Shown here piece by piece: positions 12,324 to 56,095 of a stretch of 64,000 nucleotides of DNA. Each line of letters starts with the position of its first letter. Position 1 is the first letter of the stretch. Source of the DNA: Mobula hypostoma (lineage: Eukaryota); contig NC_086108.1 in NCBI RefSeq assembly GCF_963921235.1, positions 47,246,001 to 47,310,000 on the forward strand, read 5' to 3'. A program made the translations under genes and the position numbers. The notes below the pieces were generated by a model. The model saw nothing but the letters and a program-made list of their open reading frames with translations. It had not been told where the DNA came from and made no database searches.

Positions 12324-12427
12324 CTTTTTGTTCAAAAATATATTTTGCATTAATTACAAAGGAAATAAAGATATTTAAGTATTTTCAGGTTACCACATTT
12401 ATCATTTGCTAAATAACAAAATACTCA

Positions 12428-14167: not shown

Positions 14168-14289
14168 CTAACAAGTGAAATAGTTACTGGCATCTCACAG
14201 ACTTCTCATGTGCAATTATCTATCAGATTCTGGTATTACTTTATATCATCTATTTACAAAGCTCATTTTCAACTATTGCCATTACTTAC

Positions 14290-14402
14290 CCTAGCACTCT
14301 TATATTAGTCTCAAAGACCGAGACAACAATATCATTATCCAAGTGAACATCATTTATAACCCTTTTCACAGCGGCTTCAAATTCTTCCACTTGGTTCAGC
14401 AG
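14290..14402 (-). CDS. EDEM3: EDEM3 exon 5 (113 nt)
   Basis: tctag|...|gtaagt encodes [37 protein letters not shown](G), containing the GH47 catalytic Glu motif VFETNIR. Confidence 0.97.
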
Positions 14403-14499
14403 CTAGAAACACAAAATCATATTACTCAGTGTCTCCTCCTGATTCTTTGACGTTCAATAGACAGTATTTTGAACCAAAAGCTAAGCTGTTTTCACTTAC

Positions 14500-14539
14500 T
14501 GCAAGTGTATCCAAAGTGTCAACCAAAGTCAAAGAAAAT
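14500..14539 (-). CDS. EDEM3: EDEM3 exon 4 (40 nt)
   Basis: ttcag|A TTT TCT ... GCA|gtaagt encodes FSLTLVDTLDTLA (GH47 mannosidase motif). Confidence 0.96.
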
Positions 14540-15390
14540 CTGAAAGACAATAGTTAACAGTTAACCTGAGGGCGAAGTGAACAGTTTTAGATGTATGGCA
14601 GTGGAAGTTTGCATGATGACTTCCATATCAATTTAATGTAGTTTTAGAACTTTTTCTTCTATTCACAGCTAAATATATGGAAATCAGCCAAAGAAAATGG
14701 GCAGGCAGTACAACTGTTTATATAAGAATAGCTGAAAGTCAGAACAAAATTGTTTTGCATTTTCCACAGAAATGGAGCAGAATTGTGGAATGCAATTCTC
14801 TGCCATCAGATTTCTGAATGGTCCACAAACCCATGAGCCCCTCATTATTTGTCCTTTGCACTTTTATTATTTAGTAACTTATAGTAATTTCTAGGTCTTG
14901 TACTATACCACTGCCGTTAAACCAAAAAAATCATGACATATGTTCGCAATAATTAATCTTATTCTGATTCTGAATTCTCAGATCACTAGTAATTAGGATT
15001 TGATTTACCAAAGAGAAATTCAATTTATCACACCTATTTGACATCTGTTTCATAAGCTTTCAGCAGTTGAAATATCAGGTTAAAAATAGTTATCTCATCC
15101 ACTCCCTTAATGTTTCATGGCAAGCCAATTTGAATCTTTAAGCATCTGGATTTATAAATAAGCAGACAGCTGTTTGCCTCTAACAGATGTAAAATTAATG
15201 GCTGCTGTCATTCACCGGTAGTGTTCCCACCTCAGAGCTAATAGATGGTTGATTCAATTTATTAAAATGCAAGTTATTTTCCTTTTTTTGAAATGGAGAA
15301 ATCAGACAGTTAGACTGACTGAAAACTATGGTTATGAAACAGTGTACCTCAATGCTCCAGCATTGACCTGAACTGGCAGTGTTCTTTAAA

Positions 15391-16295
15391 AGTACCACAA
15401 AGGTTGGGGGTGTTGTGGATAATGTGGAGGGCTGTCAGAGGTTACAGCGAGACATCGACAGGATGCAAAACTGGGCTGAGAAGTGGCAGATGGAGTTCAA
15501 CCCAGATAAGTGTGAGGTGGTTCATTTTGGTAAGTCAAATATGATGGCAGAATATAGTATTAATATATTTTATTAATGGTAAGACTCTTGGCAGTCTGGA
15601 AGACCACAGGGTTCTTGGGGTCAGAGTCCATAGGACACTCAAAGCTGCTACGCAGGTTGACTCTGTGGTTAAGAAGGCATAGGATACATTGGCCTTCATC
15701 AATCGTGGGATTGAGTTTAAGAGCCAAGAGGTAATGTTGCAGCTATATAGGACCCTGGTCAGACCCCACTTGGAGTACTGTGCTCACTATTGGTCGCCAA
15801 ACTACATGAAGGATGTGGAAACCATAGAAAAGGTGCAGAGGAGATTTACAAGGATGTTGCCTGGATTGGGGAGCATGCTTTATGAAAATAGGTTGAGTGA
15901 ACTTGGCCTTTTCTCCTTGGAGCAAAAAGGATGAGAGGTGACTGGATAGAGGTGTACAAAATAATGAGAAGCATTGATCGTGTGAATAGTCAGAGGCTTT
16001 TTCCCAGGGCTGAAATGGCTGGTACGACAGGGCATATTTTTAAGGTGCTTGGAAGCAGGTACAGAGGAGATATCAGGGGTAAGTTTTTTTACGCAGAGAA
16101 TGGTAAGTGTGGAATGGGCTGCCAGCGGCAATGGTGGATGTGGAAACGATACGGTCTTTTAAGAGACCCCCAGACAGGTACATGGAGCTTAGAAAAATAG
16201 AGGACTATGGGTACGCCTAGTGATTTCTAAGGTAAGGACATGTTCGGCACAGCTTTGTGGGCCAAAGGGCCTGTATTGTGCTGTAGGTTTCTATG
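15391..16295 (+). mobile_element. 5'-truncated CR1 LINE
   Basis: ORF2 C-terminal pieces (LQRDIDRMQNWAEKWQMEFNPDKCEV; LVRPHLEYC) plus 3' tail; highly similar to 29496-30719. Confidence 0.93.
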
Positions 16296-17021
16296 TTTAC
16301 TCCTCTATAGATGAACACAAAACAAAATGCAAGGCCATGAATGATCAAAATTGGATAATCTTTCCCTTTCACTTTCATCTTACGGTTATATTAAATACTC
16401 TTAGTACTGACTGGTATATTTAAAAAACCTTAGATAATCACTGATAATTTATAATACTACCATCTCAACTTTTAACCTGTACTGAATTACTTTGAATTTC
16501 GAAGCTATAAAATATTTGCCTTTGGAATATTTATGATTTCAGATGATAAAAGCATAACCACATTCTAAATATTGATAATTTAGTGCAAAATGAACTCAGA
16601 TCCAATAGCTACTGGATGGTAAAATACCACCTGAAGAATCTACAGTAAACTAGAAATCAGTTTCCATTTTATCGGAAGCCATTTAGCCTTCAATGTGACA
16701 TAATGCAGAGGTTAAGACTTTTTGCACCACCTATACCTTACAGATAACTTGCAAAAGTGACAATTAAATTTCACTGAACACACTTTAGATGAAAAGTAAC
16801 TATAAGTCTAAGATTCAGAATTAAAAAGCTTTGGGTTGAATAGGAACTCCCAAAACATCTGCTTCCTTGAAAACCAAAAAAAAATCAAAGTACAATGCAT
16901 CTTCCGTACAATTCTCACTTCATCTAAACTCTTCTCTCACTTATATTTCAAACTGTTTTTCAGAATGTCTGTGAACAAATGCTGAAACTAGTAAGGGGAA
17001 TTAGCCAAAAGCAGCACTAAC

Positions 17022-17122
17022 TTGCCGAGGGCATCATCCACATCACCACGACTGGGTTCCAAGCCACGAACACGGCCGCGGCATGTCAGAGGCATTAGCT
17101 CATCAGCTGGGTATGCATGTTC
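17022..17122 (-). CDS. EDEM3: EDEM3 exon 3 (101 nt)
   Basis: tgcag|...|gttagt encodes [33 protein letters not shown](K), near-identical to EDEM3 including the conserved Cys. Confidence 0.97.
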
Positions 17123-17259
17123 CTGCACAAATGCAAAATTAAAATTAAAAATTCAAATTATGCAATTGCACTCTGCATGCACCAAATTTCACAAAAATTG
17201 ATTCAATACAGAAATTAATCACATTTGGTGAGATCACATCTGGAATATTGTCTACACCA

Positions 17260-18610
17260 TAGAGTCATAGCAGAGAAACAGGCCCTTCGTCCCATCTAGT
17301 CCATGCCAAAACCACTTAAGCTGCCTACTCCTAATGATCTGCACCTGGACCATAACCCTCCCTATCCCTACTAAATTTTCTCTGTTCTCTCTCAACCTTG
17401 TTTACATCTTTCCTGTAGGTAGGTGACCAAAACTGCATACAATACTCCAAATTAGGCCTCACCAACATCTTATACTACCTCAATATAACATCCCATCTTC
17501 TGTACTCAATATGTTGATATATGAAGGTCAATATGCCAAAAGCCTTTTTTATGACCCTATCTACCTATGACGCCACTTACAACAAATTATGGACCTGTAT
17601 TCCCAGATCCCTTTGTTCTACCATACTCCTCAGGAAACTAACTTTTAATGTGTAAGACCTACACCTTGCATTAAATTCCATCTGCCATTTTTCAGCCCAT
17701 TTTTCCAGACAATGCAGATCCCTCTGCAAGCCATGATAGCCTTCCTCACTGTCCACTCCACCCCTAATCTTGTTACCATCTGCAAATCTGATCATCCAGT
17801 TAACCACATTATCCTTCAGATCACTGATCTAGATAAGAAACCACAAAGCACCCAGCACTGATCCCTGTGGCACACCACAAGTCACGGGCCTCCAGTGAGA
17901 GAGGCAACCCTCTGCTGGCACTCCCTGGCTTCTCTCACAAAGCCAATGTCTAATCCAGTTTACTACCTCATCTTGAATGCCGTGACTGAACCCTCTTGAC
18001 CAATTTACCATGCAGGACCTTGTAACATGCCTTACTAAAGTCCATGTAGACAACATCCACTGCCTTGCCTTCATCCACTTTCCTGGTAACTTACTCAAAA
18101 AGCTCTATAAGATTGGTTAAGCATGAACTACTACATACGAAGCCATGCTGACTATTCTTAATTAGTCCACGTCTATCCAAATACTTATATATCTGGTCCC
18201 TTAAAATAACTTCCAATAACTTTCTCACAACTTACGTAAGACTCACTGGCCTATAATTTCCTTGTTTATGTTTAGAGCCTTTTTCAAACACAGTGGAACA
18301 ACATCGGCTATCCTCCAATCTCTGATACCTCCCTTATCACTAAGGATGTTTAAATATCGCTTCAAGAGTCCCGGCAATTTCTGTACCTGCCTCCCATAGG
18401 ACCCGAGGGAACACCTTGTCATCCACGATGATCTGTCTCAGGGTAGTAAACACCTCCTCCTCTGTAATCTGTACAGGATCTGTGAAGTTAATGCCGCTTT
18501 GCCTCACTTCTATAGAGTCTATATCCATCTCCCGACTAAATATAGGTACAAAGAACGTATTTAAGATCTCCCCATCTGTTTTGGTTCCACACATGGATTA
18601 CCATTCTGGC
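17260..18610 (-). mobile_element. CR1 LINE fragment (RT region to 3' tail, internally deleted)
   Basis: ORFs 17577..17807, 17829..18098 (GVPQGSVLG) and 18340..18594. Confidence 0.9.
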
Positions 18611-18939
18611 CTTCCAGAGGACCAAGACCTCCTGATGCAGCAGGAGCACTGGGACAAAGAACAATAAATAACAAAGAACAACTATGGGGATCAAACTCAG
18701 GAAAAGAGTGGCTTCATTTGCAATCCCTGCAGAATCTATCAGGGCAGAACACAGCTGCTCCAGAAAAGAAATGTGGGGATAAAAAATAATTCTGGACAAA
18801 TACCTGACATAAAGTAAGGATGAAAACAGTAATTGAGCTAACCAAGGGAAAACAGATGAACAAAATTCCTGATGATTTTGCGCCATCATTTCATGGACCT
18901 TTAACATGATGCTCTCAAAACACTACTCTTCCTATTCTC

Positions 18940-19325
18940 CATCTACTCTACCAAGGGAGTACTTTCTCCAACACCCTGGTCCAAACATCCATCTCTTCTT
19001 TACCTTTCTGTGCATATACAGGCGATGCATCACAAAATGGTCACCCAATCAATGTTCGGTCACCCCATTTACAAGCATTGAATGCCAAGCCACTAGACAG
19101 TGATTTGGTAACACATTCAGACACATCCATTCAGTACTCAAGGGTAGCAGCAAACTTCCAGTCATCTGAGCTTTTAAAATTCTGATTTTTACTCTCTCTC
19201 ACTCCTCTTCGCCCTAAACTATTTCAATGGAGCCTAATGCAAGAGTGAAGAACAATGCATCTAATTCTTTGAATTGAGCGTTCTGAACTGAAAATTGAGC
19301 TTAACAATTCCAAATTGCTGCAATT
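18940..19325 (+). mobile_element. Degenerate Penelope GIY-YIG fragment
   Basis: Similar to 26300-26750; aagagtgaagaacaatgcatctaattcttt resembles the KLEEQHLIF motif. Confidence 0.45.
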
Positions 19326-19489
19326 TGTCTTTATAAAAATCTCTAGTTCCTTGGAAATGCTTCATCTCCCTTCTCAAATATAAGTGCTACAACAGCTACT
19401 CACCAGTGTTTTGACATCTCATATTTTTCTAGCAATTCATTATGTGTGTGTAATGTAACGAATTGATCTTGGCCCTATATTCTTTTTCA

Positions 19490-19830
19490 GGCAGATATGG
19501 CTCGTCAGCCGTGGTAGGCAGCTCATCTAGGGGAAGGAAAACTTTGATCTCAAATCTCCGCTGCCGTGCGGCTAAACCCACTCATGGGGAAGGCTTTGTG
19601 AGTCCCTAAGGCAGTCCTACGTTGAGTTCAATGTTGACAGGCAACACCTGCGACACTGCTGGTACCAAACTGTATCGGTTTCTGCTGTTCCTTTGGGTTC
19701 ATCAGATGCCTGGAGAGAGGGAGCTTGCTACATGGGCAACAGCTTGCTCTCCATATCATACTGCCCAGGCTCGTGTATCTAGACAGCTAGGACGCAATAT
19801 CCATGGTCAGCTCTGACCAACAGAGGCCTC
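19490..19830 (+). mobile_element. Interspersed repeat, probably RTE-derived non-autonomous element
   Basis: GC-richer block with ctaggggaaggaaaactttgatctcaaatc...ctgccgtgcggcta, recalled as resembling RTE 5' regions; not verified. Confidence 0.3.
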
Positions 19831-19919
19831 AGACAGATATTCTTTTAATGTACATGGAGGTAGTGGGATTTATGATGAATTTGACTGATTTTATCTTTTT
19901 GTGATCTTTTAAAAAATTC

Positions 19920-22900
19920 ATGACCTGATAGAGGACGCCACGGTGATCGGGTTTCTGGCACTGAGCCTGGTTCCGTGGTGCAGAAGGGAGAGAAGAAGAT
20001 GAGGCATGTGGTAGTCATAGGGGATTCCATAGTGACAGAAACAGACAGGAGGTTCTGTCAGCCTGCTAGAGATACCCACGAACTGGAGTGATAGAACTGA
20101 GGAAGGGGACAACAGAAATAAATCAAAGATAGCGTGCAACAGAGATGATAGAAAGGACAGGCAAGAGATGAAGCATAATCACAGCCAGTGGGATGAGTTA
20201 CAGGGCAATACAGGTGTTGTGCAGTTAAAACAGAAAGCAACAAATACTGGACTGAAAGTGTTGTATTTGAATGCACGCAGCATAAGAAATAAAATGGATG
20301 ATCTTGAAATTCAGCTACAGATTGGCAAGTATGATGTTGTGGCCATCTCTGAAACTTGGCTAAAGGATGGCTGCCATTGGGAGTTGAATGTCCAAGGACA
20401 TATGGTGTATCGGAAAGATACGTTAGTAGGCAGAGGGGGTAGTGTGGCCCTGTGTATAAGAAATAATATTAAGTCATTAGAAAGGGAGGACATAGGATCG
20501 GAAGGTATAGCGTCTCTATGGGTTGAGTTAAGAAATAGCAAGGGTAAAAGAACGCTAATGGCAGTTGTATACAGGCCTCCAAACAACAACCGGGACGTGG
20601 ATTACAAAGTACAGCAGGAGATAGAAAAGGTGTGTCAGAAGGGCAATGTCATGTTAATCGTTGGGGACTTTAACATGAAAGTGGATTGAGAAAACCAGAC
20701 CAGTACTGGACCTCAAGAGAGAGAATTTGTAGAATATCTATGGGATGGCTTTTTAGAACAGCTTGTTGTTGAGCCCACTAGGGGATCAGCTGTGTTGGAT
20801 TGGGTGTTGTGCAAAGATCGGAGGTGATAAGAGAGCTTAAGGTTAAGGAACCCTTAGGGAACAGTGATCACAATATGATTGAGTTCACTCTGAAATTTGG
20901 GAAGGAGAAACTAAAATCCAATGTCTCGGTATTTCAGTACAATAAAGGAAATTACAATGGCATGAGACGGGAACCGGCCAAGGTTAACTGGAAAGGAACA
21001 CGAGCAGGGAGAACAGCAGATCAGCAAAATGAGGGAATTGCAAGATAAAATAAGAAGAAATTTTCAAATGGAGGAAGGTCACTACCATGGCTGACAAGTG
21101 AAGTCACAGCCAAAGTAAAAACAAAAGAGAGGGCATAAAAGGAAGCCAAAGCTAGTGGGAAGATAGAGGATTGGGAAGCTTTTAAAAACTTGTAGAAGGA
21201 AACTAAGAAGGTCATTAGGAAGGAAAAGATGAATTATGAAAAGAAGCTGGCGGCTAATATCAAAGAAGATACTAAAAGCTTTTTTAAGTATATAAAGAGT
21301 AATAGAGAATTGAGGGTAGATATAGGACCAATACAAAATGACGCTAGAGATGTTGAAAGAGAGATGCAGAGATAGCAGAGGAACTGAATGCGTATTTTGC
21401 ATTAGTCTTCACAGTGGAAGACATCTGCAGTATACCGGACATTCAAAAGTGTCAGAGAAGTGAAGTATGTGCAGTGAAAATTACAACTGAAAAGGTGCTC
21501 AGGAAGCTTAATGATCTGAGGGTGGATAAATCTCCTGGACCTGATGGAATGCGCTCTTGGGTTCTGAAAGAAGTAGCTGGAGAGTTTGCGGAGGCATTAA
21601 CAATGGTCTTTCAAGAATTGATAGATTTTGGCGTTGTACCGGATGACTGGAAAATTGCAAATGTTACTCTGCAATTTAAGAAGGGTGGGAGGCAGCAGAA
21701 AGGAAATTATAGACCTTTTAGCCTGACACCAGTGGTTGGGAAGCTGCTGGAATCGATTGTTAGGGATGAGATTACAGAATACCTGGAGGCACATGACAAG
21801 GTAGGCCAAAGCCAGCATAGTTTACTGAAAGGAAAATCCTGCCTGACTAACCTACTGCAATTTTTTGAGGTAATTACAAGCAGGGTAGACGAAGGAGATG
21901 CAGTAGATGTGGTGTATTTGGATTTTCAGAAGGCCTTTGACAAGGTGCCACACATGAGGCTGCTTAGCAAGGTAAGAGCCCATGGAATTACAGGGGAGTT
22001 ACTAGCATGGGTGGAGCACTGGCTGATCGGCAGAGAACAGAGAGTGGGAATAAAGGGATCCTATTCTGGCTGGCTGCCGGTTACCAGTGGAGTTCCACAA
22101 GGGTCAGTGTTGGGACTGCTGCTTTTTACGATGTATGATTTGGACTATGGGATTAATGGAGTTGTAGCTAAATTTGTTGATGATACAAAAATAGGTGGAG
22201 GATTGGGTAGTGTCGAGGAAACAGAGAGCCTGCAGAGAGACTTAGATAGTTTAGGGAAATGGGCAAAGACGTGGCAAATGAAATACAATGTTGGAAAGTG
22301 TATAGTCATGCACTTTGGTGGAAGAAATAAACAGGCAGACTGTTATTTAGATGGGGAGAAAATTCAAAATACAGAGATGCAAAGGGACTTGGGAGTCCTT
22401 GTGCAGGATACCCTAAAGGTTAACCTCCAGATTGAGTCAGTGGTGAAGAAGGCAAATACAATGTTGGCATTAATTTCGAGAGGTATACAATATAAGAGCC
22501 GGGATATGATGTTAAGGCTCTGTAAAGCACTCGTGAGACCATTCTTGGAGTATTGTGTGCAGTTTTGGGCTCCTTATTTTAGAAAGGATATACTGACATT
22601 GGAGAGGGTTCAGAGAAGATTCACAAGAATGATTCCAGGAATGAACGGGTTACCGTATGAGGAATGTCTGGCAGCCCTTGGGCTGTATTTCCTGGAGTTC
22701 AGAAGAATGAGGGGTGATCTCATAGAAACATTCCAAATGTTAAAAGGCGTGAACAGATTAGATACGGCAAAGTTATTTCCCATGGTAGGGGAGTCTAAGA
22801 CAAGAGGGCATGACTTCAGGATTGAAGGACGTCCATTTAGAACAGAGATGCAGAGAAATTGCCTAAGTCAGAGGGTGGTAAATCTGTGGAATTTGTTGCC

Positions 22901-23106
22901 ACGAGCGGCCGTAAGAGGCCAAGTCATTGGGTACATTTAAAGCAGAGATAGATAGGCTCTTAATTAGCCTCGGCATCAAAGGGTATGGGGAGAAGGCAGG
23001 GGAGTGGGGATGACTGGAAAAATTGGATCAGCCCATGATTGAATGGCGGAGCAGACTCGATGGGCTGAATGGCCTGCTTCTGCTCCTATATCTTATGGTC
23101 TTATGG
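19920..23106 (+). mobile_element. Near full-length CR1 ORF2 (APE endonuclease + RT) with ORF1 esterase remnant; inactivated
   Basis: VVIGDSIV remnant (~20010). Endonuclease LYLNARSI...ISETWL...YRPPN...VGDFN (20168..20689) and SDHN. RT 508-aa ORF 21414..22940 (YLDFQKAFDKV, GVPQGSVLG, FVDDTK). 3' tail tcttatggtcttatgg; several in-frame stops. Confidence 0.96.
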
Positions 23107-23323
23107 AGACATCATTTGCTTCCACTTCTGCATGAAGGACCCTCTAATTCTGCCCTCACTCAGCAAGACAACTTTTAACAACTTCCTTGCATTTAAAATT
23201 TTTGTGTAATATGCAATCTACTTCACTCGTTTTGTATCAAATTAATGTGCCTCAGTGTTCCTGCTTTTATTATACTCACTCACTGAAATCCTGTTTTGCA
23301 CTTCTACTTCTTTTAATTACTTA

Positions 23324-24914
23324 CAGGTGTCTCCCGCTTTTCGAACGTTCGCTTTACGAAACCTCACTGTTACGAAAGACCTACATTAGTACCCTGTTTT
23401 TGCTTTCAGAAGGTGTTTTCACTGTTACGAAGAAAGGCAGCACGCGATAAAAAAATCAGCGCGCGATAAAAGGCAGCGCGCCGCCCGGGCAGCCGCTCTC
23501 CCCCGGATTCGGAACGGCATTACTTTAACACGTTGTATTGAGTAGCCGTTAGCAAGATGAGTTCTAAGGTGTCGGAAAAGACTGAAAGAGTAAGGGTGTT
23601 ACACTTAGCGTAAAACTAGACATAATTAAGTGTGTCGATCGTGGTGAACGAAGTAAAGACAAAGTGAGTTTGGCTTGTGGAAGTTGACGAAGATGATGTT
23701 GAAGAGGTTTTGGCATCCCATGACCAAGAACTGATAGATGAAGTGCTGATGCAATTGGAAGAGGAAAGGATAACAATCGAAACCGAATGCAGAAAGTGAA
23801 GCAACTGCGTGAGATTTTCGCTGCAGTGATAAAGTACGACTTTAATTTTGAAAGGGTACGTAGGTTTAGGGGATAGTTGCAGGATGGTTTGAGTGCTTAC
23901 AAACAACTGTACCATAGAAAAATGCGCGAGGCTCAGCAATCAAGCAAGCCTTCCACATCAGCCACAGCAGACGACGAACCTTGACTTTCGACATCGAGGC
24001 AGGCAGTCATAGGAGAAGATGAGCTGCCTGCCCTGATCGACAATGAGATGACACCCCCGTGTCCCACCACCCCAACACCCGGGCCCCGGACAGATACTGT
24101 ACCGATTCGCGAAGAATGCAGCGGTAGCCGGGAGGTACACAGCACATCGTTAAGAAAAAAGTCGAAGTAAACATGCTAATTAATTAGGTGCCACCTAGCA
24201 CGTAATTGTCGGCCCAGATCAGAGGCGATGCAATCGGCAATCGCCTCTGATCTGCACCGACATTTACATGCCGGGCAGCACCTAATTAATTAGCATGTTT
24301 ATTTCGGCTTTTTTCTTAACGATGTGCTGTGTGCCTCCCGGCTACCGCTGCATCCTTCGCGGCAATGTATCAGCCCAGAGGGTGGGGGCCACTACACCAC
24401 CCAGCCTGCGACGACTCAGTCTAACACACCATCATCAGTGTGCTCGGCGCTGTTTTCCCAATTCCGGTAAGTGATACTACACTGTACATACATTATTTCT
24501 ACTTTATATAGGCTGTGTATTTTTACGTGTTATTTGGTAGATTTGGCAGCTTCATAGTTTAAAAGTTACTGGAGAGCGCATTTATGCCAACAGCGCTTGC
24601 GTGAGATTTTCTGCCGAGAGCGCTTGCTTGAGATTTTTGCTACGGAGATCTGTGCAGGCAATCATTGTAGAGAAGTATTTCTACTTTATATAAGCTGTGT
24701 ATTTATCATATCATTCCTGCTTTTACTATATGTTACTGTTATTTTAGGTTTTATGTGTTATTTGGCATGATTTGGTAGGTTATTTTTGGGTCTGCGAACA
24801 CTCACAAGATTTTCCCCATATAAATAAATAGTAATTGCTTCTTCGCTTTACGACATTTCGGCTTACGAACCGTTTCATAGGAACGCTCTACCTTCAGATG
24901 GCGGGGGAAACCTG
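23324..24914 (+). mobile_element. Non-autonomous pogo/Tigger-like DNA transposon
   Basis: TA-flanked (23322-23323, 24915-24916) imperfect TIRs caggtgtctcccgc / caggtttcccccgc. CENP-B-type HTH remnant VTLSVKLDIIKCVDRGE and acidic DEDDVEEVLASHDQEL remnant. Confidence 0.85.
24108..24361. repeat. Long imperfect palindrome (~250 bp), hAT-MITE-derived, inside the Tigger-like element
   Basis: cgcgaagaatgcagcggtagccgggagg ... cctcccggctaccgctgcatccttcgcg, with centre cagatcagaggcgat-loop-atcgcctctgatctg. Confidence 0.9.
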
Positions 24915-26299
24915 TATTTACAAGCAGATAAACTTTGTAGCCTTCTCAACTAGTATTATGCATGGAAAGCTGATACCAGAACAATTTCTTGTTCTGGGTC
25001 AAGGGTTAAATCCTTTGGATTAATGCAATATTTACCCATCTCGGTGCAATAATGCACACGAGTAAAATAAACATGACTCCATCTCAGCCCACACCCTATG
25101 GAGTTTTCAGATTGCTGTACAGAGCAAACACATGCTGGATGATGAATTTCCAGCAAAGAGAGCTAATAGAAAGCAAACAGATTTAGCAAGGAAGCCTCAT
25201 GCTGAATATCAAACATCTATTATTTTAATAGACAATCATTTACATAAAATATTTTGTTATTTATGAAGCTGTCAAGCCTTTGACAGTAAATACTGAAAGG
25301 AATTGCATTTTTAAATTTGTTTTAACTTATGCATAAAATAAAAAAAATACATGATTGATCAAGGTTTAAATTGTTCTGATACCAGAATTAATATTAATAA
25401 CATGAACATTACCCAAGCATTTAAGTGAGAGGCTCATGGAAATTTGTGTCTATTTACTCATTAAAATAAAATATATATGCAAGTTAAATGTGGAACATTT
25501 ATATTTACCCTTCATAAAATTATGACTAATACATTATGCAACAATGAGGTGTACACAGAATATACAATAAAATGGAAATAATAATCTTGCACTTTAGATG
25601 AGACAAAAAGGCAAAACTATTAAAGCCAATTAGTATTACAAACAAAATAATGATTTTTGTTTAAATGATGTCCTTCAATCAAGAAACGTAATGTATTTTC
25701 AGAATGGTCTTACATTCTAAAACAGAACTCAGATATGTTGATCTGGTTGTTCATATCCTGCTTTTCCAGGAACAAGAAATTATCATAAAAAAACAAACCA
25801 CGGATGTTGAAGATCAGAAGCTCAGCAGAGAAGCAGAGTTAACGAGGGTGGTTCCAATTTCTGTTATACAGGCGAGTATCACTCTATTCATGAAAAATGA
25901 TCATCCCAGAAACACATAAAAATTACTCAACTGAGAATCGGAGAGGCAACAAAGTAGGAATGCTGATGAGACAATCAGCCCTGGAATACTCTTACCACCT
26001 TCAACAAGCAAGAAAATTAACTCTGTGGTAGAACTTCAAGACTCACTCCCACCTCAGTTTGAGACCTTTGGTTTCTGTTCCTCATCTCTTCTTCACACCC
26101 ATCAACTCTGGTTGAAAGATACCCTACAGTAATTCATCCTGTTGTGCAGGTGCTGTCTCATTGACATAACTATCCAATACTTTCCAATTCCTTCCTCTTT
26201 TCCATGCAAATCCTCATATTTTCCTCTTCAAGCACTTAGCCAATTCCCTTCTGAAGTCAGCTTCAGTAAGATTTCACCACCAGATGCATCTCCCTTCCA

Positions 26300-26755
26300 G
26301 CATTTCAGAAGGCCCTTTCTCTTCACAGCTTCCTGCTCCACTCCTGTCTCTCAACAGCCACATCCTTCCCAGAGCATGCTCCCATCTAACCCCAAGAAAT
26401 GCAACTTCTATCCTTTTACTTCCCATTATTCAGAAATCAAAAAATTAATCCAAGTGAAGCAATGATTCACTTGCACTTTTCCTAATCAAGTGTACTACCT
26501 TTGGTGAGCACAACGTAGTTTCCTTTGTATTGAAGAAACCAAATACAGATTGGATTATTGCAATGCAGAAGTGACTGCAAGCTCCCATTACTCACCACTT
26601 GAATTATTTTCTTCTCCCACTCTAACCACATGTCTGCAGGCATTCTGCACTGTTATAATGATGCCTAACAGAAGCCTGAGGAGCAGCACTTCATCTTCTC
26701 AGAGGCCTTCCTGACTCAACACTGAATTCTGCAATGTTAGGTAACTTGCTTTATC
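26300..26755 (+). mobile_element. Degenerate Penelope GIY-YIG fragment
   Basis: tgtattgaagaaaccaaatacagattg (YIGETK-like) and aagcctgaggagcagcacttcatcttc (KLEEQHLIF-like). Confidence 0.6.
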
Positions 26756-26797
26756 TGTCTGTATCAGAAAATGCCATTTCTCTGTAAACCATCCGTT

Positions 26798-27100
26798 ATT
26801 TTACTTAGAGAGACAGCACGGAACAGGCTTTTCCTTTAAGCCATGCCACCCAGCAACCCACCGATTCAACCCTAGCCTAATCACAGAACAATCTACAATC
26901 ATCAGTTAACCCACTACTAACCTGTACACCGAGGGACTGTGGGAGGAAAGCAGAGCACCCAGAGGAAACCCACGCACACATGGGAAGGAACATACATAAC
27001 ACCTGCTTACAGAGGAGGCCGGAATTGAACTCCGAATTCCGACATCCCAAGCTGTAATAGAATCGCTTCCTTAGCACAGCCTAACCAGCTGCGTTATAGC
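26798..27100 (-). mobile_element. tRNA-derived V-SINE (HE1-like)
   Basis: Minus strand has B-box-like gagttcaattcc, V-domain gcgtgggtttcctctgggtgctctgctttcctcccacagtcc and a CR1-like tail. Confidence 0.8.
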
Positions 27101-28549
27101 ATGCATTTCATGCCTTTTCACATTCCTATTGACTGGAATATACAGTTCGGTCTTGCCTTTGTAGCTAAGCCAACAGTACACTGACTACTATCTTAGAATG
27201 TCAGTGTATAATTAACATTCTCACAAAAATATGATTCAGGTTTGAACCTTTCTGTTTTAGAAACATAAAATCACCCCTGAAGCAAGAGATAACTCTGTAG
27301 AATATTCATCCTGCATTCAGCTGAACACATTCTATTTTCAAAGCACACATAGAAACCTACGAACCTGTACAAAAATTGAACAGGAATAAACAGACTAAGT
27401 ACAGGAAGGATGTTCCCAAGGATGTAAAGTCCAGAAACAGAGTACAGAGTTTAAAGATGCTGTAGCATGCCATTTAGAACTGAGATTAATAGAAATTTAT
27501 TCAATTAAAATATAGTGAACACCTCTACCACAGAAGATAAGCAAGGCAAGGTCATCAAAAATACTTACGTTGATATTTTTTTCTGAATACGAAAGTGATG
27601 AGAGTGTTGCGGAGAAAAGGAGTAACAGGATATTGAAATAAATCAGCCATGACCATTTTACAAACTGGATCAGTCCTTACGTAAGTGTCAGAGAGCCAAG
27701 TCTGCTTCTTCTCTATCTCCATGACCGCACCACTCTTAGTCATTTGCAGGAAAGTTATAAATAATTGCTTTTTTAGATGTATACATAAAATAGCTTTACT
27801 TTCTCTGTAACCAAATAAACTTTGGAATAAGCTATACAGCTCTGTGCTGCACATGACACCTTTATATTCATACAGCACTATCTGCCCTAATAAAATTACA
27901 TGCAGTGACTGGCATGGCAAATTTGAAAAAGCTAGCAACCTTCAAACAGTCTATAGAATTAAAAATCCATTAATTTGTTGGATTTTGGATCTGCTTCCAA
28001 TTTTATAACCACATCCTTTATTGCTCTAAAGTTGATAAACTAATTCTGCATGTTAGCGCATCATGCTGAGCTGACTCAGATTCCTTTATATTGCAGATGC
28101 ACAAGATAAAAATAATTGCTATTCCTTCATAAAAGAACTGCATCATTATTCAAGGTTCCATTTAATTTAGGCGTAAAAGTAATCTACACCCATTAAATTA
28201 TCAAACTGTTTCAAAAATAAATGAAAAGTTTTGGATTCCAAATCACATTCTACAGCAGTCATTGCAATAAGACTGCAATGACAATACTGAACTGGTACCT
28301 GTAGAATATGTGCATGCTCTATGTGCAGGTGGGAGGGTATCTCTCGGTTTAATTTTGTGTACCTTAAAAAATGCAACAGACTCTCCAATTGTAGTACTTT
28401 GCAACATGGCTTGATGTTATACTTCGTATTTCTATCAGTCTGACAATGCAACTACATTCTTAAATACAACACTTCCATGTGCCACATAAACAAAATTATA
28501 TATAATCAAAAATAAAAGAATTTCAATAAATAAAGATTGGTGGACTTAC

Positions 28550-28595
28550 CATGTAATTTTGATATGCATGATCAAACATCTCCAATACTTGATCC
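28550..28595 (-). CDS. EDEM3: EDEM3 exon 2 (46 nt)
   Basis: tacag|G GAT CAA ... TAC ATG|gtaagt encodes (R)DQVLEMFDHAYQNYM, matching EDEM3 NQVLEMFDHAYGNYM. Confidence 0.96.
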
Positions 28596-29495: not shown

Positions 29496-30719
29496 TTTTT
29501 GAGGATGTGACGAAACACATTGACAAAGGTAGAGCAGTAGATGTACTGTATAAGGACTTAAGCAAGGTATTTGATAAGGCACGCATGCAAGGCTTATTGA
29601 GAAAGTAAGAAGGCATGGGATCCATGGGGACCTTGCTTTGTGGATCCAGAATTGGCTTGCCCACAGAAGGCAAAGAGTGGTTTTAGAAGGGTCATATTCT
29701 GCATGGAGGTTGGTGACCAGTGGTGTGCCTCAGGGATCTGTTCTGGGACCCCTTCTCATCGTGACTTTTATAAATGACCTGGACGAGGAAGTGGACGGAT
29801 GGGTTAGTAAATTTGCTGATGACACTAAGGTTGGGGGTGTTGTGGATAGTGTGAAGGGCTCTCAGAGGTTACAACGGGACATTTATAGGATGCAAAACTG
29901 GGCTGAGAAGTGGCAGATGGAGTTCAACCCAGATAAGTGTGAGGTGGTTCATTTTGGTAGCTCAAATATGATGGCAGAATATAGTATTAATGGTAAGACT
30001 CTTGGCAGTCTGGAGGATCAGAGGGATGTCGGGGTCCAAGTCCATATGACACTCAAAGCTGCTACGCAGGTTGACTCTGTTGTTAAGAAGGCATAGGGTG
30101 CATTGGCCTTCATCAACCGTGGGATTGAGTTTAGGAGCCAAGAGGTAATGCTGCAGCTATATAGGACCCTGGTCAGGCCCCACTTGGAGTACTGTGCTCA
30201 ATTCTGGTCGCCTCATTACAGGAAGGACATGGAAACCATAGAAAGGGTGCAGAAGAGATTTACAAGGATGTTGCCTGGATTGGGGAGCATGCCTTATGAG
30301 AATAGGTTGAGAGAACTCGGCCTTTTCTCCTTGGAGCGATGGAGGATGAGAGGTGACCAGACAGAGGTGTACAAGATAATGAGAGGCATTGATCGTGTGG
30401 ATAGTCAGAGGCTTTTATCCAGGGCTGAAATGGCTAGCACGAGAGGGCATAGTTTTAAGGTGCTTGGAAGTAGGTACAGAGGGAATGTCAGGGGTAAGTT
30501 TTTTTATGCAGACAGTGGTGAGTGCGTGGAGTGGGCTGCTGGCGGTGGTGGTGGAGGTGGATATGATTGGGTCTTTTAAGAGACTTCTGGATGGCTACAT
30601 GGCGCTTAGAAAAATAGAGGGCTATGGGTAAGCCTAGGTAGTTCTAAGGTAGGGACATGTTCAGCACAGCTCTGTGGGCTGAAAGACCTGTATTGTGCTA
30701 TTGGTTTTCTATGTTTCTA
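29496..30719 (+). mobile_element. 5'-truncated CR1 LINE (young subfamily)
   Basis: ORFs 29638..30096 (GVPQGSVLGP, FADDTK) and 30103..30579; tail tttctatgtttcta; possible TSD atatatt (29489-29495, 30721-30727). Confidence 0.95.
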
Positions 30720-34880: not shown

Positions 34881-34929
34881 TAGTTCATAACAATATGTAA
34901 TATTATGAATGAGGGTAGGCAGCAGATCC

Positions 34930-35374
34930 CACCACCCAGGACATGCTCTCTTCTTGCTACTGCCATCAGGAAGGTGGTACAGGAGCCTCAGGACTCACCC
35001 CACCAGGTTCAGGAACAGTTACTACTCATCAACCATCAGGCTCTTGAACCAAGGGGGATAACTTCAGTCAACTTTACTTGCCATCATTGAGATGTTCCCT
35101 CGACCTACGGACGCACTTTCAGGGACTCTTCATCTCTTGCTCTTGATATTTATTGCTTATTTATTTATTAATTATCATGTCTTTCTTTTTATTTTTTGCA
35201 ATTTGTTGTCTTTTGCACACTGGCTGAATACCCAAGTTGCTGCAATCTCTCTTGAATTGATAATGGTTAATAGTCTATTATGGATTTACCATGCCCACAA
35301 GAAAACGAATCTCAGGCTGGTCTATCGTGACATCAATGTACTTTGATAGTAAATTTACTTTGTTCTTTAAATTA
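34930..35374 (+). mobile_element. Rex1/Babar-type LINE 3' end
   Basis: ctactgccatcaggaaggtggtacaggagcctcaggactcaccccaccaggttcaggaacagttac, shared with 44790-44900 and 63500-63590; ends tactttgatagtaaatttactttg. Confidence 0.8.
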
Positions 35375-35391
35375 CGACTCTTTCATTACAT

Positions 35392-35506
35392 AACAAATGC
35401 CAAAGGTCGAAACATGAAAATCTTTAAATACCTTTGTTTCCTTTGTAACTAATGCAAAATATATATTTGAACAAAAAGGTCAATCTGAAGTATGGAGTGA
35501 GGCAAC
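35392..35506 (+). repeat. Inverted duplicate of the EDEM3 intron-6/exon-7 junction (partner 12296-12410)
   Basis: 35411-35506 matches the reverse complement of 12296-12391 at 88/96 positions without gaps, including a perfect 36-nt run TTTGAACAAAAAGGTCAATCTGAAGTATGGAGTGAG. Confidence 0.93.
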
Positions 35507-36534
35507 TTTGAAATAACCATTTTGTCAATGCACTGATTTATAAAGAACAGCTTTATACTTTTATTCTGATTCTTCACACACATCTCTTAAAGACAGCTTT
35601 CTGTGTCTTGTAAATAGCCACGTAATTCACACCGAAACAGTGATTTAATTTACATATGATTTGTACAAGCTGCAGGTGAGTCAACATTAGGAAACATTCA
35701 CAGCAAGAGCACATCAGTTCCTAGGTTCCCAGCGCTCATTTAATAGATTATGCTACTTTTCGGGGTTGTTTTTCCATTCATAATATAACTACATGCACCA
35801 GTTCTAAATCTGACCAAAACCAAACAAGCAAAAAGTTTAACAAATAATGGTTGTTGCATCCAGAACTAAATGTTTACAACTATTGAAATTAATATGATTG
35901 CCAATTCCTTTCTACTTTGTGGTTTAAAGTTTGGTTTAATGTTTCCTCTCTTGGAGCCAACTATAATGACTGGTGCCTCTGACAAAACCAAAACCAAAAA
36001 AGACAACTATCTGTTCAATACTGTTAAAATATTGCTCAGCAATTAAGCCTCAGGATAATTTGCACAATTAAACACACAGTAAAACAAAAGACTAGAGAAG
36101 TATTTTGAGAAGGCGTCTCTTTCTCCATGAATAAGAGCCTTTTCCTGGAATATTAGGCCACTCAGGATGGGATACACTCTTACAATCAGGAAGGAAAAAT
36201 ACCACTCATAAGTTTGGGCTGTAAACTAAATACTCAGGTTATGTGTAATGGGAACTAATTTTATGCAAAAATGAGTTTTTCCCATTTAAAAAAAAGCCAA
36301 AACAGGTTAATGCAAAACTGTATGGTACTTCTAATTGATTACAGAGGGTCTTGTTTTGAGCATGTTTACGAAGGGCCCCAGGTTATGAGTGCCTTGATTA
36401 ATGGAAATCTGACTTTACATAAATTCCCTCATATATTTTTAATGCATTTTTCCATCCATAATACATTTCATTGTGTTCATTAATGACTATCAACAGTACG
36501 TGCTCCATTAGGGCAGGGTAATTCAGAAGTAAAT

Positions 36535-40539: not shown

Positions 40540-41790
40540 AAAGTGCTGCAAACTGTTCCAACATTCCTGAATAAATAACCCCTTCTCCAGCCTCCAACCC
40601 TCCTCCTCTTCTTGGACACTCCAATCTGCCTCTCTGCCTGCCCTGGATCTTTTCAATTCCAATTGCCGACGAGCCATCAATTGTCTCAACACCAGCACTC
40701 CTCTCTCCTCCTTGAACCTTACCTTCTCTGAATGCACTGCCTTCCCCTCTCTCCGTACCAATCCCAATCTTACCGTCAAGCCTGCAGACTCAGGGGGTGC
40801 TGTGACAGTGTGGCACACTGACCTCTATCTTCCTGAGGACAGGCGGCAAATCTCAGACACCTCCTCATACCTACTCCATGAGGAGGACCCCACTCCAAAC
40901 CATCAGAAAACTGTCTCAACACCATCACAAACCTCATCAACTCTGGAGAACTCCCATCCACTGCCACCAAACTCATAGTACATTTACACCGCACTACTCG
41001 CTTCTACCTCCTACCCAAGATCCAGAAACCTGACTGTCCGGGTAGGCCCATTGCCTAACAAACAAAGGAAAATCTGCCGGGGCTGAAAACCAAAGCACTG
41101 CACACAAAATGCAGGAGGAACTCAGCAGGCCAGGAGAGTAAACAGTCGGCATTCCAAGATCCTTCATCAGGGCCATTGTCTCTACCTGTTCCTGCCCCAC
41201 TGAACTCATGCCCTCATACCTTAACTCCATTCTATCCCCCTTGGTTCAGTCCCTTCCCACCTTCATCCTCAACACTTCTCATGCTGTCGATCTCCTCAGT
41301 AACTTTCAATTCCATGACCTAGACCACCTCATTTTTACCATGCATGTCCAGTCCCTATACACTTCTACCATCAGGAAGGCTTCAAAGCCCGCTGCTTCTA
41401 TCTCAACCCTCAGCGATCTTCCCTCGGCCCCATCCACTTTCTCCATATTCAAAGTAGCCACAGACACCTGCACGGGCCCCACCTACGCATACATCTTTGT
41501 TGGCTACATTGATGAATCTGCATTTATTCCAAGCCTTCCCCGGTGATGCTCCTTAACTCTTCTACCACTACGTTGATGACTGCATTGATGCTGATTCATG
41601 CACCCGCGCTGAGCTTGTCAATTTCATCAACTTTGCCTCTAACTTCCACCCTGCCCTTAAATTCATTTGGTTCATTTCTGACACCTCCCTCTACTTTCTC
41701 AATCTCTCTGTCTCCATCTTTGGAGACAAACTGTCAACTGACATTTTTTATAAACCTACCAATTCCCAGTTGTCTTGATTATATCTCTTT
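40540..41790 (+). mobile_element. Penelope-like element RT fragment, interrupted at 41056-41170 by a hairpin-family insert
   Basis: Motifs NLTVKPADSGGAVTVW, FYLLPKIQKP..PGRPI(VS), MHVQSLYT, GPTYAYIFVG and YVDD, broken by frameshifts. Confidence 0.88.
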
Positions 41791-43474: not shown

Positions 43475-43840
43475 ACACACAATCTGCTGGAGGAACTCAG
43501 TGGCCCAGCAATATCTATGGAAGGAAAAGAACTGCTGGTGTTTGGTGATTCAGTGGGTCCCTGATGTAGATTTTCGAGCTGAAATGTCAACATTTCCTTT
43601 TCTTCTCACATTCGGTTCTCGACCTGTTGAGTCCCCGGAGCAGATTGTTGTTGCTGCAGATTCCTTCCAGCATCGGCAAACTCAGCAGGTCAGACAGCAT
43701 CTATGGAGGGGAATAAAAAGTTGATGTCCTGCTGAAGGGTCTTGGCCCAAAACGTCGACTGTACTCTTTTCTGTAGGTGCCGCCTGGCCTGCTGAGTTCA
43801 AAATGCAGGAGGACCTCAGCAGGCCAGGCAGCATCTGCAG
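43475..43840. mobile_element. Cluster of Penelope-associated hairpin elements
   Basis: Repeated ctggaggaactcag / ctcagcaggtcagacagcatct / ctggcctgctgagtt units with degenerate hammerhead boxes. Confidence 0.7.
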
Positions 43841-50979: not shown

Positions 50980-52860
50980 ATCCATAGCTACCTTAAAACA
51001 TAAAGAGCTGTGGTCACTGTTCTCTAGCTGCTCACCCATTGAAAGGTCGGTCACCTGGCCAGGCTGAATACCCAATATCAGATCCAGTACAATCCCTCCT
51101 CTTGTTGAACTACCTACATGTTGATTTAAGAAACCCTCCTGGATTCATCTAATAAATTCTGCCCCATCTAAACTTCTTGCACTCAGAAAGTTTATATTCA
51201 GGAAGTTGAAGTCCCCCATGACAGCAACCCTACTGGTTTTTCATTCCTTTTCTTAATCTGCCTGCATATCTGTTCCTCAATGTTATTCTACCGTGTGATT
51301 TGTAGTACAATCACATCAGAGTAATTGCACCCTTCCAATTTTTGAGTTCTATCTATTTGGACCCAGTGGAGGAGCCCTCCATTATGTTCCCTCTGAGTGC
51401 AGCTGTCATATCGTCCCTGATTAGGAGTGCAATTCCCCTCCCCCCAACCCCTTTTTACCTCCTTCCCAATATTTTCTAAATATCAAATCCCTGGAACATT
51501 AAGCACCCATTCACGTCCCTCTTTCAACCAAGTCTCTGTAATGGTCACAACATCACAGTTCCATGCTCTAAGTTAACCACCTTTCCTGATAACACCCCTA
51601 GCATTAAATACACACACACATTTCAAACTATCCATCCCATTGTACCTCAAGCAAGAGAAAATCTGCGGGAAATCTGAGCAACACACACAAAATGCTGGAG
51701 GAACTCAGCAGGCCTGGTAGCATCTCTTGGGAAAAAGTACAGTCAATGTTCTGGGCCAAGGACAGCCAAAGGGTCTCGGCTCGAAACGTTAACTGTACTT
51801 TTTTCCATAGATGCTGCCTGGCCTGCTGAGTTCCTCCAGCATTTTGTGTGTGTTGCTTGGCCCATTGTGTCCATTACTTTGCTCCTGCCTGTTTTTACAG
51901 GCCCTGACATCTACCTTCCTCTTCCCTCCACTTTCTGACCTGGTGCTCTGGATCCCACCTCTCTGCCAAGTTAGTTTAAACCCTCTCAAGTAGCAGTAGT
52001 GAACATCCTGTGCAGGATATTAGTTCCCCTCCAGTTTAGGTGCAACCCATCACTCCTGTGCAAGTCACATCCACCCCAGAATCAGTTCCAATGATGCAAG
52101 AATCTGAAATCCTGTCCCCTGCACCAGCTCCTCAGCCACCCATTCATCTGTACTGTCATCCTAATCCTGCCCCGACTAGCACATGGCACTGGGAGTAATC
52201 CGGAGATTACTACCATGGAGGTCCTGCTCTTTAGCCTCTTTCCTAACTCACTGTGCTCTCTGCACAGGACCGCTGACCCCTTTCTACCTACAATATGTCA
52301 TTGGCATCAATGTGCACCAAGACCTCTGACTGCTCCCCCATATTCTGCAGCCACTCTGAGACGTTCCAGACCCTAGCACCTGGGAAGCAGCACACTGTCC
52401 TGGGTTCTCCATCACGGCCACAGAACCCTCTGTTCATCCCCTTCACTATTGAGTCTCCTATCACTATTGTTCTGCCTGACTGAGTCTCAGAGCCAGCCAC
52501 AGTACCAATGGCCTGACTGCTCCTGCTGGGTCTTCGCCCCCAACGAAGGGGTGTACTTGTTGTTGAAAGGACTGAGCAGAGGAGAACTGTGTCCTGATTG
52601 CTGACTCCCTATACTTCTCCTGGTGGTCACTCGCCTACCACTGAAGGCAGCACACTGGCTGTGACCATCTCAGTAAAAGTTTCATCTGTGAGGTTTTCAG
52701 CCTCCTGGATGGTCCTGAGTTCATCCACTTCCAGCCCCAGTTCCTCATCCCTGTCAGTCAGGAGCTGAGGCTGGGCATACTTCCTGCAGATGTAGTCATC
52801 AGGGAGACTGTCAATTTACCCTGAAATCCCGCATCTCAAAGGTGGAGCATTCCAATGCCT
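50980..52860 (-). mobile_element. CR1 5' half (ORF1 esterase + endonuclease remnant)
   Basis: ORF 52288..52500 TIVIGDSIVKGMNRGFCG...VCCFPGARV...VHIDANDI; GDFNF and SDH-type endonuclease remnants at 51000-51230. Confidence 0.85.
51644..51860. mobile_element. Palindromic Penelope-associated hairpin element with 8-bp TSD
   Basis: Arms agcaacacacacaaaatgctggaggaactcagcagg / cctgctgagttcctccagcattttgtgtgtgttgct; flanked by CCCATTGT (51636-51643, 51861-51868). Confidence 0.85.
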
Positions 52861-54356: not shown

Positions 54357-56095
54357 CTACATCTGAGAATTCTTCTCATCTTGTTTAGCTTCACCCTGAT
54401 TCTGGGTTATTTTTTCTTCCTGGCTTTCAGAAGCAGCATGTGGCTCTTCGGTGTTTACCGTATGTGTAGAGGCAATTTCTTGAGCTTCCTCCTTGAGCAA
54501 TGTTGGGGCTCTTCCAGAAACTGCATCAGACTCAACACAATCAGCAGAAGTTTCATTTTCTGAACAATCACTTGTTTTTTGTGACATATCTTTTTTTTCA
54601 TCTTCTGTAGCCATCTCATTCTGACCTTGTGGTGGCTCATTAGTTGTTGTTGATAAGTCTTCATTACCTTGCTTCTCCTGACCTGCAGGATCATCAACTG
54701 TTGATGATAAGTTCTTGCATTCATTATCCTCCTTTTCTTCATTTTCCACAAGTTGAGTAACTGTTGATGATAATCCCTTGCACTCATTATCATCATCCTG
54801 AACTTTCACAAGTTCATCATCTGCTACTGGTAAGCCATCATTGTTATTATTTTCCTTATCCTGAACTTCCACAACTTCATCAACTGTTGACTGTAACTTT
54901 CCCTCCTCATTATCTTCCTGATCCTGAACCTCCACAACTTCTTCAGCTGCTACTGGTAAGCCATCATTGTTACTATTTTCCTTACCCTGAGCTTCCGCAA
55001 CTTCATCAACTGTTGACTGTAACTTTTCATCCTCATTATCTTCCTTAACCTGAACCTCCACAACTTCTTCAACTGCAACTGGTAAGCCATCATTGTTATT
55101 ACTTTCCTTGCCCTGAACTTCCACAACTTCACCAACTGTTGACTGTAACTTTTCATCCTCTTTAACTTCCTTGCCCTGATCTTCTCTACTTTGATCTTGT
55201 ACAAGTTCATCAACCATTGATGGTGAGCACTTGCATTCATTACCTTCCTTATCCTGACCTTCCACAAGTTCATCAGCTATTGAAGTTAAGCTCTTGGGTT
55301 CGTCTTCCCTATTCTGTCTTTCCACAAGTTCATCAGCTGGTACCGGCAAGTTTTTTACTTCAGATTCCTCAATTTTCTCTGGCTGAACTTCCACGGATTC
55401 AACTACTGATGTCACATCTTCACTTTTTATTTCACTTTGGTCCTCAAAATGTTCATCCACTTTTGGACTGGATTCAGTGTGTACTTCAACATGGTTTGCA
55501 TCATTTCCTTTGCACGGTAAAGCTTCCTGATCCTCAGAACTGTCCTCAGCTGGCACAATTGCCACGGTTAGCAAGTCATGTATTTCTTTTAAACTATCAG
55601 GAGCTGGAGTAGATGCATTTTCCTTCTCTTTTTCATTTTCCTGCCTGTCCTGACATTCATTTCTTGGTAGGTTCTCGTTATTGTTTGCATTGTTTAATTC
55701 CACTGGATTTCCACCTTCCTGATAATTCCCTGCAGTTGAACTAGATTCCTCTACTGCATTTACATCAAGTTCAGTTACCACTATTCCATTTGGCTTGGAG
55801 TGAAGAACTTCATTCCCCGATTTCTGGTGAGAAGTTGATGACTGTTCACTTTCCAGTTTCTCATTCAGTAGAATATCAGATGTAGGAGCAGAAATTTGAG
55901 AAATCACTTTTTCACCCACTTCCAGTCCCTCAGCACTCGAGTCTTTAGGTGGTGTTTTGGCTGGGCTCCTGGGTTGAGAACCTGGTGGTGTCTTTCCTTC
56001 ATTTTTATCAGTGAGATTGCCATCACTGTCACTGGTATAAGGCAAATTGTCCACAAATAGATTGTGTTTTTTCAAAATGGCAGCCTCTTGCACCA
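54357..56095 (-). CDS. NIBAN1: NIBAN1 terminal coding exon (acidic, low-complexity C-terminus with tandem repeats)
   Basis: Acceptor ctcctgttag| at 56096. Begins VVQEAAILKKHNLFVDN (Niban1 EAAILKKHNLFEDN motif); 579-codon open frame to TAG at 54357-54359. Adjacent to EDEM3 on the same strand, as in mammals. Confidence 0.9.
54640..55345 (-). repeat. Coding tandem repeat: ~63-bp (21-aa) monomers, central part organised as 126-bp dimers
   Basis: Motif tccacaa(c/g)tt recurs near 54745, 54805, 54868, 54931, 54994, 55057, 55120, 55198, 55261 and 55321; tggtaagccatcattgtt recurs at 54828, 54954 and 55080 (period 126). Confidence 0.92.

Follow-up and report, generated by a model that had tools for sequence, protein, structure and literature searches.

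Intron 1 of the EDEM3 gene contains an antisense copy of the exon 7 splice acceptor of the same gene, lying inside the tail of a dead retrotransposon. The copy is a real, old, two-copy feature. It looks like a scar of DNA repair rather than a splicing switch, and the evidence does not call for reading it as a long-range splicing element. For its origin we favour, at slightly better than even confidence, a neutral duplication made during repair and primed by homology between the LINE tails. The window analysed, i.e., the whole stretch of DNA presented here, comprises 64,000 nucleotides.

The EDEM3 gene and the antisense copy

The gene that hosts both arms of the repeat is EDEM3, encoded on the minus strand. 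Its exons 6 and 7 match PF01532, and named ray EDEM3 proteins contain the exon 6 peptide with 100% identity, followed by that of exon 7. Exon 1 ends at 42450 and is followed by intron 1 (42449-28596), which contains the antisense copy, and then by exon 2 (28595-28550), exon 3 (17122-17022), exon 4 (14539-14500), exon 5 (14402-14290), exon 6 (14167-14014), exon 7 (12323-12189), and exon 8 (5282-5177), with splice sites read from the sequence. Exon 7 is 135 nt long, in frame, and part of the GH47 domain (PF01532, E=2.3e-6). Exons 2-6 with their introns (14014-28595, minus strand) form the part that a duplex between the two arms would loop out; the exons sum to 454 nt in the gene model built here, as had been calculated in an earlier, sequence-only reading of this DNA. 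Intron 6 starts with the donor GTAAGT and ends with the acceptor TTTTTGAACAAAAAG, which is purine-rich as judged from its letters rather than from a strength score. The odd acceptor raised the question of a U12-type intron, which is ruled out by the GTAAGT donor.

The sequence-only reading had described an ungapped inverted match between 35411-35506 and 12296-12391, and recomputation gave the same 88/96 identical positions, with a perfect run of 36 nt (12301-12336 against 35466-35501). The outward extension at lower identity was also recovered, with 14/20 identities in the adjoining 20 nt and 23/35 over the full 35 nt that separate the 96-nt block from the LINE tail. With the LINE tails included, the whole inverted alignment covers about 400 columns at 74% identity. 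The copied block itself is 131 nt long, and its arms differ at 20 sites. The donor (12296-12426, minus strand) consists of the last 103 nt of EDEM3 intron 6, including the AG, and the first 28 nt of exon 7. The copy, on the plus strand, has a distal part (35411-35506), which is antisense to the acceptor in the pre-mRNA, and a tail-proximal part (35376-35410), corresponding to 12392-12426. At the exit junction (35504-35513, plus strand), AAC, common with exon 7, is followed by TTTGAAA, and together they make one LINE tail repeat unit; TTTGAA is expected at a fixed site by chance with a probability of about 5e-4. In a genome search with 12296-12420 (125 nt), 2 candidates gave 2 matches, both of them within this window; these counts are lower bounds. 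The eight core differences are of mixed kinds, which rules out A-to-G hyper-editing of a retro-copied RNA. Titles and abstract openings of the EDEM3 literature on circular RNA and splicing contained no report on this element among the matches listed.

Other repeats were noted in the window. EDEM3 intron 7 contains transposase-like fragments, probably of the Tc1 type (7171-8224), with inverted repeats at 6452-6585 and 8085-8224. Two direct copies of a CR1-like reverse transcriptase fragment are 87% identical and lie in intron 3 (15396-16298) and intron 1 (29823-30716). A palindromic short repeat element at 51636-51860 has related copies at 6578-6805, 41047-41134, and 43475-43799. An acidic open reading frame of 588 residues on the minus strand (54357-56123), with 63-nt and 60-nt tandem repeats and free of Pfam matches, is probably a large exon of the neighbouring gene.

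LINE tails beside both arms

The proposal that related LINE tails accompany both arms proved right, as one family adjoins them in opposite orientations in introns 1 and 6, 23 kb apart. The intron 6 element (12427-12663, minus strand) is a 5'-truncated 3' tail of 236 nt, sense to the gene, that differs from the family consensus by 7.0% (16/229) and carries a target-duplication-like motif at both ends. The intron 1 element (34926-35369, plus strand) is a 3' fragment of about 445 nt, antisense to the gene. The (GAACTTT)n tails end the family's 3' ends. RVT_1 was detected in 2/4 frames scanned, in one of them above the curated cut-off, together with PF09004; another scan gave 0/4 relevant matches. 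We take PF09004 to be the end of Rex-type open reading frames, and the Rex label is based on this and on the name given in the sequence-only reading. Judged by domain and tail features rather than by reverse transcriptase phylogeny, the family fits the description of Rex1 available in PMC6274825, namely a reverse transcriptase domain followed downstream by a conserved 3' UTR with an oligonucleotide repeat at its end.

At the donor locus, the last 31 nt of the LINE tail (12427-12457) are inverted, and the copy has the uninverted form. The inverted segment lies between short inverted repeats, and the intron 1 copy preserves the earlier orientation. When the donor tail is turned back, alignment with 26 family copies shows the same tail/flank junction at donor and copy; the junction was thus duplicated together with its flank in a single piece, at a time when the micro-inversion had not yet happened. 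The inversion is absent from the copy and common to the related species C, D, and E, so it is later than the duplication and earlier than the split of this lineage from those species. Of the 17 tails in 464 kb, no other two have a common 3' flank. Co-duplication of the whole LINE tail was considered and is unsupported, as the two tails differ at 42/223 sites and have only 1 derived site in common.

The 26 reference copies were drawn from 29 loci, of 40 scored among 3836 candidates, with L016-L018 dropped as near-identical to L015. These loci, L015-L018 (G000:C96:23.78-23.86 Mb), are four near-identical LINE-containing blocks, 22-32 kb apart, which suggests a recent tandem segmental array. The reference copies had been selected because they resemble this stretch; 8 unselected local copies are 11.5-20% diverged. 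Against a consensus of copies selected in this way, the intron 1 LINE differs at 34/253 sites and the intron 6 LINE at 16/229 (p=0.024), and because of the selection no claim is made that the former is older. The distal half of the intron 1 LINE differs at 18/217, similar to the 7% of the donor tail. Divergence of the intron 1 LINE tail from consensus climbs toward the entry junction (7/107, 11/110, 14/108, 16/110; trend p=0.045), and the last bin beside it (35259-35369) has an excess of transversions, 12/16 against 36% in the family (p=0.002). With likeness-selected reference copies, this is only a hint of a putative repair-linked mutation cluster beside the entry junction.

The copy in related species

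A search of sequencing runs listed this species, a close one, and more distant ones; it also listed organism B, with a share of 0.57. None of the listed runs was recorded as RNA, and runs presumed to be RNA had word shares of 0.05-0.21 over 12100-14600, to which no weight is given here. Contigs from DNA-sized runs of species C, D, and E were placed on 35350-35950, along with those of one presumed RNA run (X9), which gave 0 contigs on the copy. The copy is present in E, where one contig (35350-35934) spans the whole of it, in D, where it is covered by two pieces (35350-35445 and 35472-35932), and in C, where a contig at 35492-35932 makes its last 15 nt visible. The sequence-only reading had named a species-private or misassembled copy as a finding that would speak against its proposal; this is not what was found, since the exit junction occurs in independent runs of three other species. 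General risk at repeats is what would favour a local misassembly or a private variant, but the E contig that spans the whole copy and the 20 differences among 131 sites between the arms leave it a negligible probability.

Between this genome and E, the 96-nt core of the copy shows 3-5 substitutions in 94 sites and a 2-nt deletion, which affects the copy only, and the adjoining intron shows 16/419 (Fisher p 0.56-1.0). Two of E's core changes, both A>G, were deduced from contig totals (24 differences, 22 of them located) and a table of kinds. The whole copy gives 8/129 (p=0.32). The core/flank rate ratio is 0.84-1.39 with 95% limits of 0.16 to 4.0, a weak test that excludes strong constraint and is compatible with moderate constraint. 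The comparison with D gives 9/96 over 35350-35445 against 22-24/426 in the flank (p about 0.15). Within these wide limits, the copy has accumulated changes as fast as the intron around it since the species diverged. The sequence-only reading had set decay at the neutral rate in relatives against its own hypothesis, and such decay is what is seen: the copy changes like the adjoining intron and the visible changes are uncompensated. A conserved complementary arm selected for pairing, as had been suggested, is not borne out by the core and flank rates.

At five sites (35408, 35410, 35431, 35449, and 35465), the exon-side letter is found in both E contigs. At each of them the change therefore occurred in this lineage's copy, with no answering change in the donor. 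Two of the five are G-U compatible, with 38% expected from the family substitution spectrum (P=0.63); inside the core, wobbles make up 2/3 of the own-lineage changes. No compensatory change was found among the visible difference rows of C, D, and E, beside which stand 9 further rows lacking positions. Logan contigs are described, in the available text of 10.1101/2024.07.30.605881, as non-branching k=31 paths in which each 31-mer is distinct. In E, donor and copy lie on two separate unbroken contigs; no 31-nt window is therefore identical between the arms, and this species lacks an intact 36-nt core.

The intron 6 arm of C and D carries a deletion of 22-23 nt, seen from contig loose ends, and D's copy has no gap there. 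This deletion (runs X12 and X16; equivalents of 12381-12403) lies about 58-80 nt upstream of the exon 7 acceptor and is flanked in D by 4-nt microhomology. D keeps identity of at least 30 nt across the acceptor, its contigs overlapping exactly at 35472-35501. The D donor does not have the usual T at the equivalent of 35449, where the copy in this genome has C; it has G at the equivalent of 35381, and one T>G difference of D has no position shown. Two concerted changes in D, at these equivalents of 35449 and 35381, are thus possible candidates.

The identity peak over the acceptor

The peak of identity is genuine, has its centre at the acceptor, and was sharper in the ancestor. The drop of identity along the copy exceeds chance (change-point permutation P=0.003; run of at least 36 nt, P=0.018). 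Over the full 131 nt, the arms (20/131) and the two LINE tails (42/223) show no difference in divergence (Fisher p=0.47). After removal of the changes of this lineage, the ancestor is left with 2/83 differences distally and 12/48 proximally (p=1e-4, for a boundary set post hoc), and the match over the acceptor was therefore sharpened before the species split. The sharpening may be due to conversion, to former selection, or to error-rich synthesis at the entry junction combined with a frozen donor. The sequence-only reading ascribed the peak to selection for pairing or to gene conversion. The latter stands as a fair explanation; pairing selection is not supported, given the neutral rate, the uncompensated changes, the indels confined to one arm, and the core broken in one species.

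Predicted RNA duplex and exon 7 inclusion

The arms are complementary in the minus-strand pre-mRNA, as had been proposed, and a very stable duplex is possible: the predicted energy is -122 kcal/mol for the 96-nt core and -374 kcal/mol for the whole repeat. The EDEM3 part of the window contains 14 inverted pairs, of which this one is predicted to form the second strongest duplex and is the only one overlapping an exon. A longer inverted pair (9851-10484 and 22441-23104; 668 columns, 71%) brackets exons 3-7 and is predicted to be more stable, at -664 kcal/mol. The two G-U wobbles reported for the core were found again, but the A-C mismatches number three, not two, and are accompanied by C-U, A-G, and U-U non-pairs. 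The exonic A-C site at 12300 is, as described, the third base of an Arg codon, where an edit from AGA to AGG would be silent, both codons encoding Arg. Between the arms lie 23 kb and five exons, and transcription that has passed the end of intron 1 has another 16 kb to go before it reaches the partner arm; presumably, intron 1 is often removed before that arm appears.

Exon 7 is retained, directly after exon 6, in 46/46 cartilaginous-fish EDEM3 proteins examined, and only 1/154 proteins, a predicted vole model, is devoid of it. The set was retrieved with exon 6 as query, and 5/20 members of one cluster were left out. It is weak evidence against skipping, because annotations omit circles and unstable isoforms, and because exon 6 was the query.

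Origin of the copy

In the favoured explanation, the starting point is observed: two copies of one LINE family lie in opposite orientation in EDEM3 introns 1 and 6. We infer that a break at the tail end of the intron 1 LINE would have invaded the homologous intron 6 tail, that synthesis would have run 131 nt beyond the tail, across the acceptor and into exon 7, and that the new strand may have been rejoined to its own other end via the 3-nt AAC microhomology, which would leave a tail unit beyond the insert. The donor tail took its 31-nt micro-inversion later, before the split from C, D, and E. The peak could then have had two sources. One is splicing constraint, which keeps the donor arm from changing; the other is an early conversion that covered the distal 83 nt, or else synthesis that was error-rich close to the entry junction. 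After the species split, the copy drifted at the rate of the surrounding intron, within the wide limits given above. In some transcripts the arms may pair, with slight skipping or circular RNA as a result, as can happen with any inverted pair. Selection maintaining the duplex finds no support in the results, and the element is probably neutral. The repair route is supported by the exit junction, which is free of poly(A) and reads AAC and then TTTGAAA like the family tail ends. The donor distance of 23 kb counts against it, being greater than the 5-kb range of confident repair calls given in the available text of PMC2671141. An empty orthologous site was not found among the three relatives, all of which carry the copy.

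Plain LINE 3' transduction from the intron 6 element, put forward in the sequence-only reading, is unlikely, since the donor tail is truncated to 236 nt and cannot have supplied the whole intron 1 element. Of the marks of transduction, a single tail-like unit is present beyond the insert, and inspection by eye revealed no clear target-site duplication around 34926-35506. A neutral relic of reverse transcription made in another way would have an identical structure, and we regard it as a tentative and rather unlikely alternative. LINE machinery would have acted on the sense tail of the EDEM3 pre-mRNA, priming in exon 7 at a tail-like site, copying 131 nt and the tail, and then switching to a longer LINE RNA. 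The sense orientation of the donor tail and the resemblance of the exit sequence to the family 3' ends agree with this, and the divergence of the distal half of the intron 1 LINE, close to that of the donor tail, would allow a similar age. However, mispriming on 3 nt and a template switch are both required, poly(A) is absent, a clear target-site duplication is not visible by eye, and simple transduction from so short and truncated a donor is unlikely. Concerted evolution, in which occasional gene conversion keeps the arms alike, or in which ancestral pairing selection has since relaxed, would account for the ancestral contrast of 2/83 with 12/48 and for the two candidate shared changes in D, and conversion between neighbouring repeats within about 10 kb is described (PMC8230782, citing Aleshin and Zhi, in the part available). 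The arms are farther apart than 10 kb, though, and the five own-lineage changes and E's private changes stayed unhomogenised; moreover, the D rows lacking positions hold no A>G, so no long tract crossed 35385 or 35393. We consider this explanation unlikely.

The reading of the copy as a selected long-range RNA duplex, which would mask the exon 7 acceptor and lead to skipping, to a 454-nt circle of exons 2-6, or to editing, draws on the predicted energies, on the rank of the pair, and on its being the sole one that touches an exon. The copy is retained in four lineages, with a perfect stretch of 30-36 nt over the acceptor in two of them, and the acceptor is purine-rich; weak acceptors are more prone to loop-out skipping according to the accessible text of PMC13019027. 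Nevertheless, the neutral-rate change, the uncompensated substitutions, the one-sided indels, and the core broken in E speak against selection, as do the lack of an exon-7-less protein among the 46 from cartilaginous fishes and the fact that an edit at 12300 would be silent. The distance between the arms and the end of intron 1 long before its partner is transcribed are further objections, and the enrichment of functional inverted pairs is said to grow with proximity in the text available of PMC13019944. This reading is very unlikely. A mixed history, in which the acceptor-spanning 30-80 nt of a LINE-tail-primed copy were later held by pairing or by repeated conversion in at least some ray lineages, so that a long-range switch of natural origin would mask exon 7 or favour a circle of exons 2-6, is quite unlikely; in its favour are the ancestral peak, D's 30-nt match, and D's two candidate shared changes. 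Repair primed by the LINE tails remains the preferred origin.

Comparison with known systems

The closest parallel is provided by the 824 local repair-mediated duplications of the human genome, unique inserts in transposons, reported by Pace et al. 2009 (PMC2671141). In the text available, these have a median of 147 bp, microhomology of 2-9 nt, and no poly(A); they include 4 partial exon/intron donors and one ACSBG2 exon copied inverted into an intron of its own gene, and a distant group of 58 same-chromosome cases is listed whose origin the authors left open. The EDEM3 copy resembles them as a unique, transposon-interrupting insert with a same-chromosome donor, a length of 131 nt near the median, and no poly(A). 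Compared with the defining features given in the accessible part of that study, its length exceeds the minimum insert of at least 50 bp within a transposon, the distal transposon fragment being one unit with a 9-nt match; the sequence occurs in one other genomic place (2 matches, a lower bound); and there is breakpoint microhomology, AAC at the exit, with no A-tract. The donor is 23 kb away rather than within 5 kb, which assigns the copy to the distant group, outside the strict proximal class. A further difference is that, in place of microhomology, one end shows homology over about 230 nt of LINE tail. Templated sequence insertions (PMC5110952, as far as its text is available) are similar in being short templated inserts, and the EDEM3 junction resembles the break-repair patches of class 2. 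In contrast to class 1, of the LINE-1 type, the copy has neither poly(A) nor a TTTT/A site, and no clear target-site duplication by eye (PMC5110952); unlike templated insertions in general, it is old and shared between species, is not a known polymorphism, and has a local donor.

Should the duplex prove to act, the origin of a long-range splicing element could be traced back to a repair event, and the relatives would serve as natural mutants, E with a broken core and C and D with a shortened donor arm. Reverse-complementary matches flank circular RNAs, and an inverted intronic Alu pair reportedly loops out an exon of TBXT. Editing-complementary sequences are intronic antisense partners of exon sequence in ADAR substrates. 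The EDEM3 copy is likewise an intronic antisense partner of an exon with A-C mismatches, but neither conservation nor compensation was seen for the pair, and an edit at its one exonic A-C site would be silent. Inverted Alu pairs promote skipping, and the effect is stronger near weak acceptors and over short distances, according to the accessible parts of PMC13019027 and PMC13019944. As in such intronic pairs, the EDEM3 arms are complementary, lie in introns flanking exons, and have a stable predicted duplex. They differ from the pairs in those two sources, as far as available, because one arm covers the acceptor itself, the distance is 23 kb against windows of 5 or 10 kb, and the EDEM3 pair is known from sequence alone. 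Overall, the element is an example of local templated duplication into a transposon, a process already known, and in this case the product is an antisense copy of a splice site that is tolerated across several ray species.
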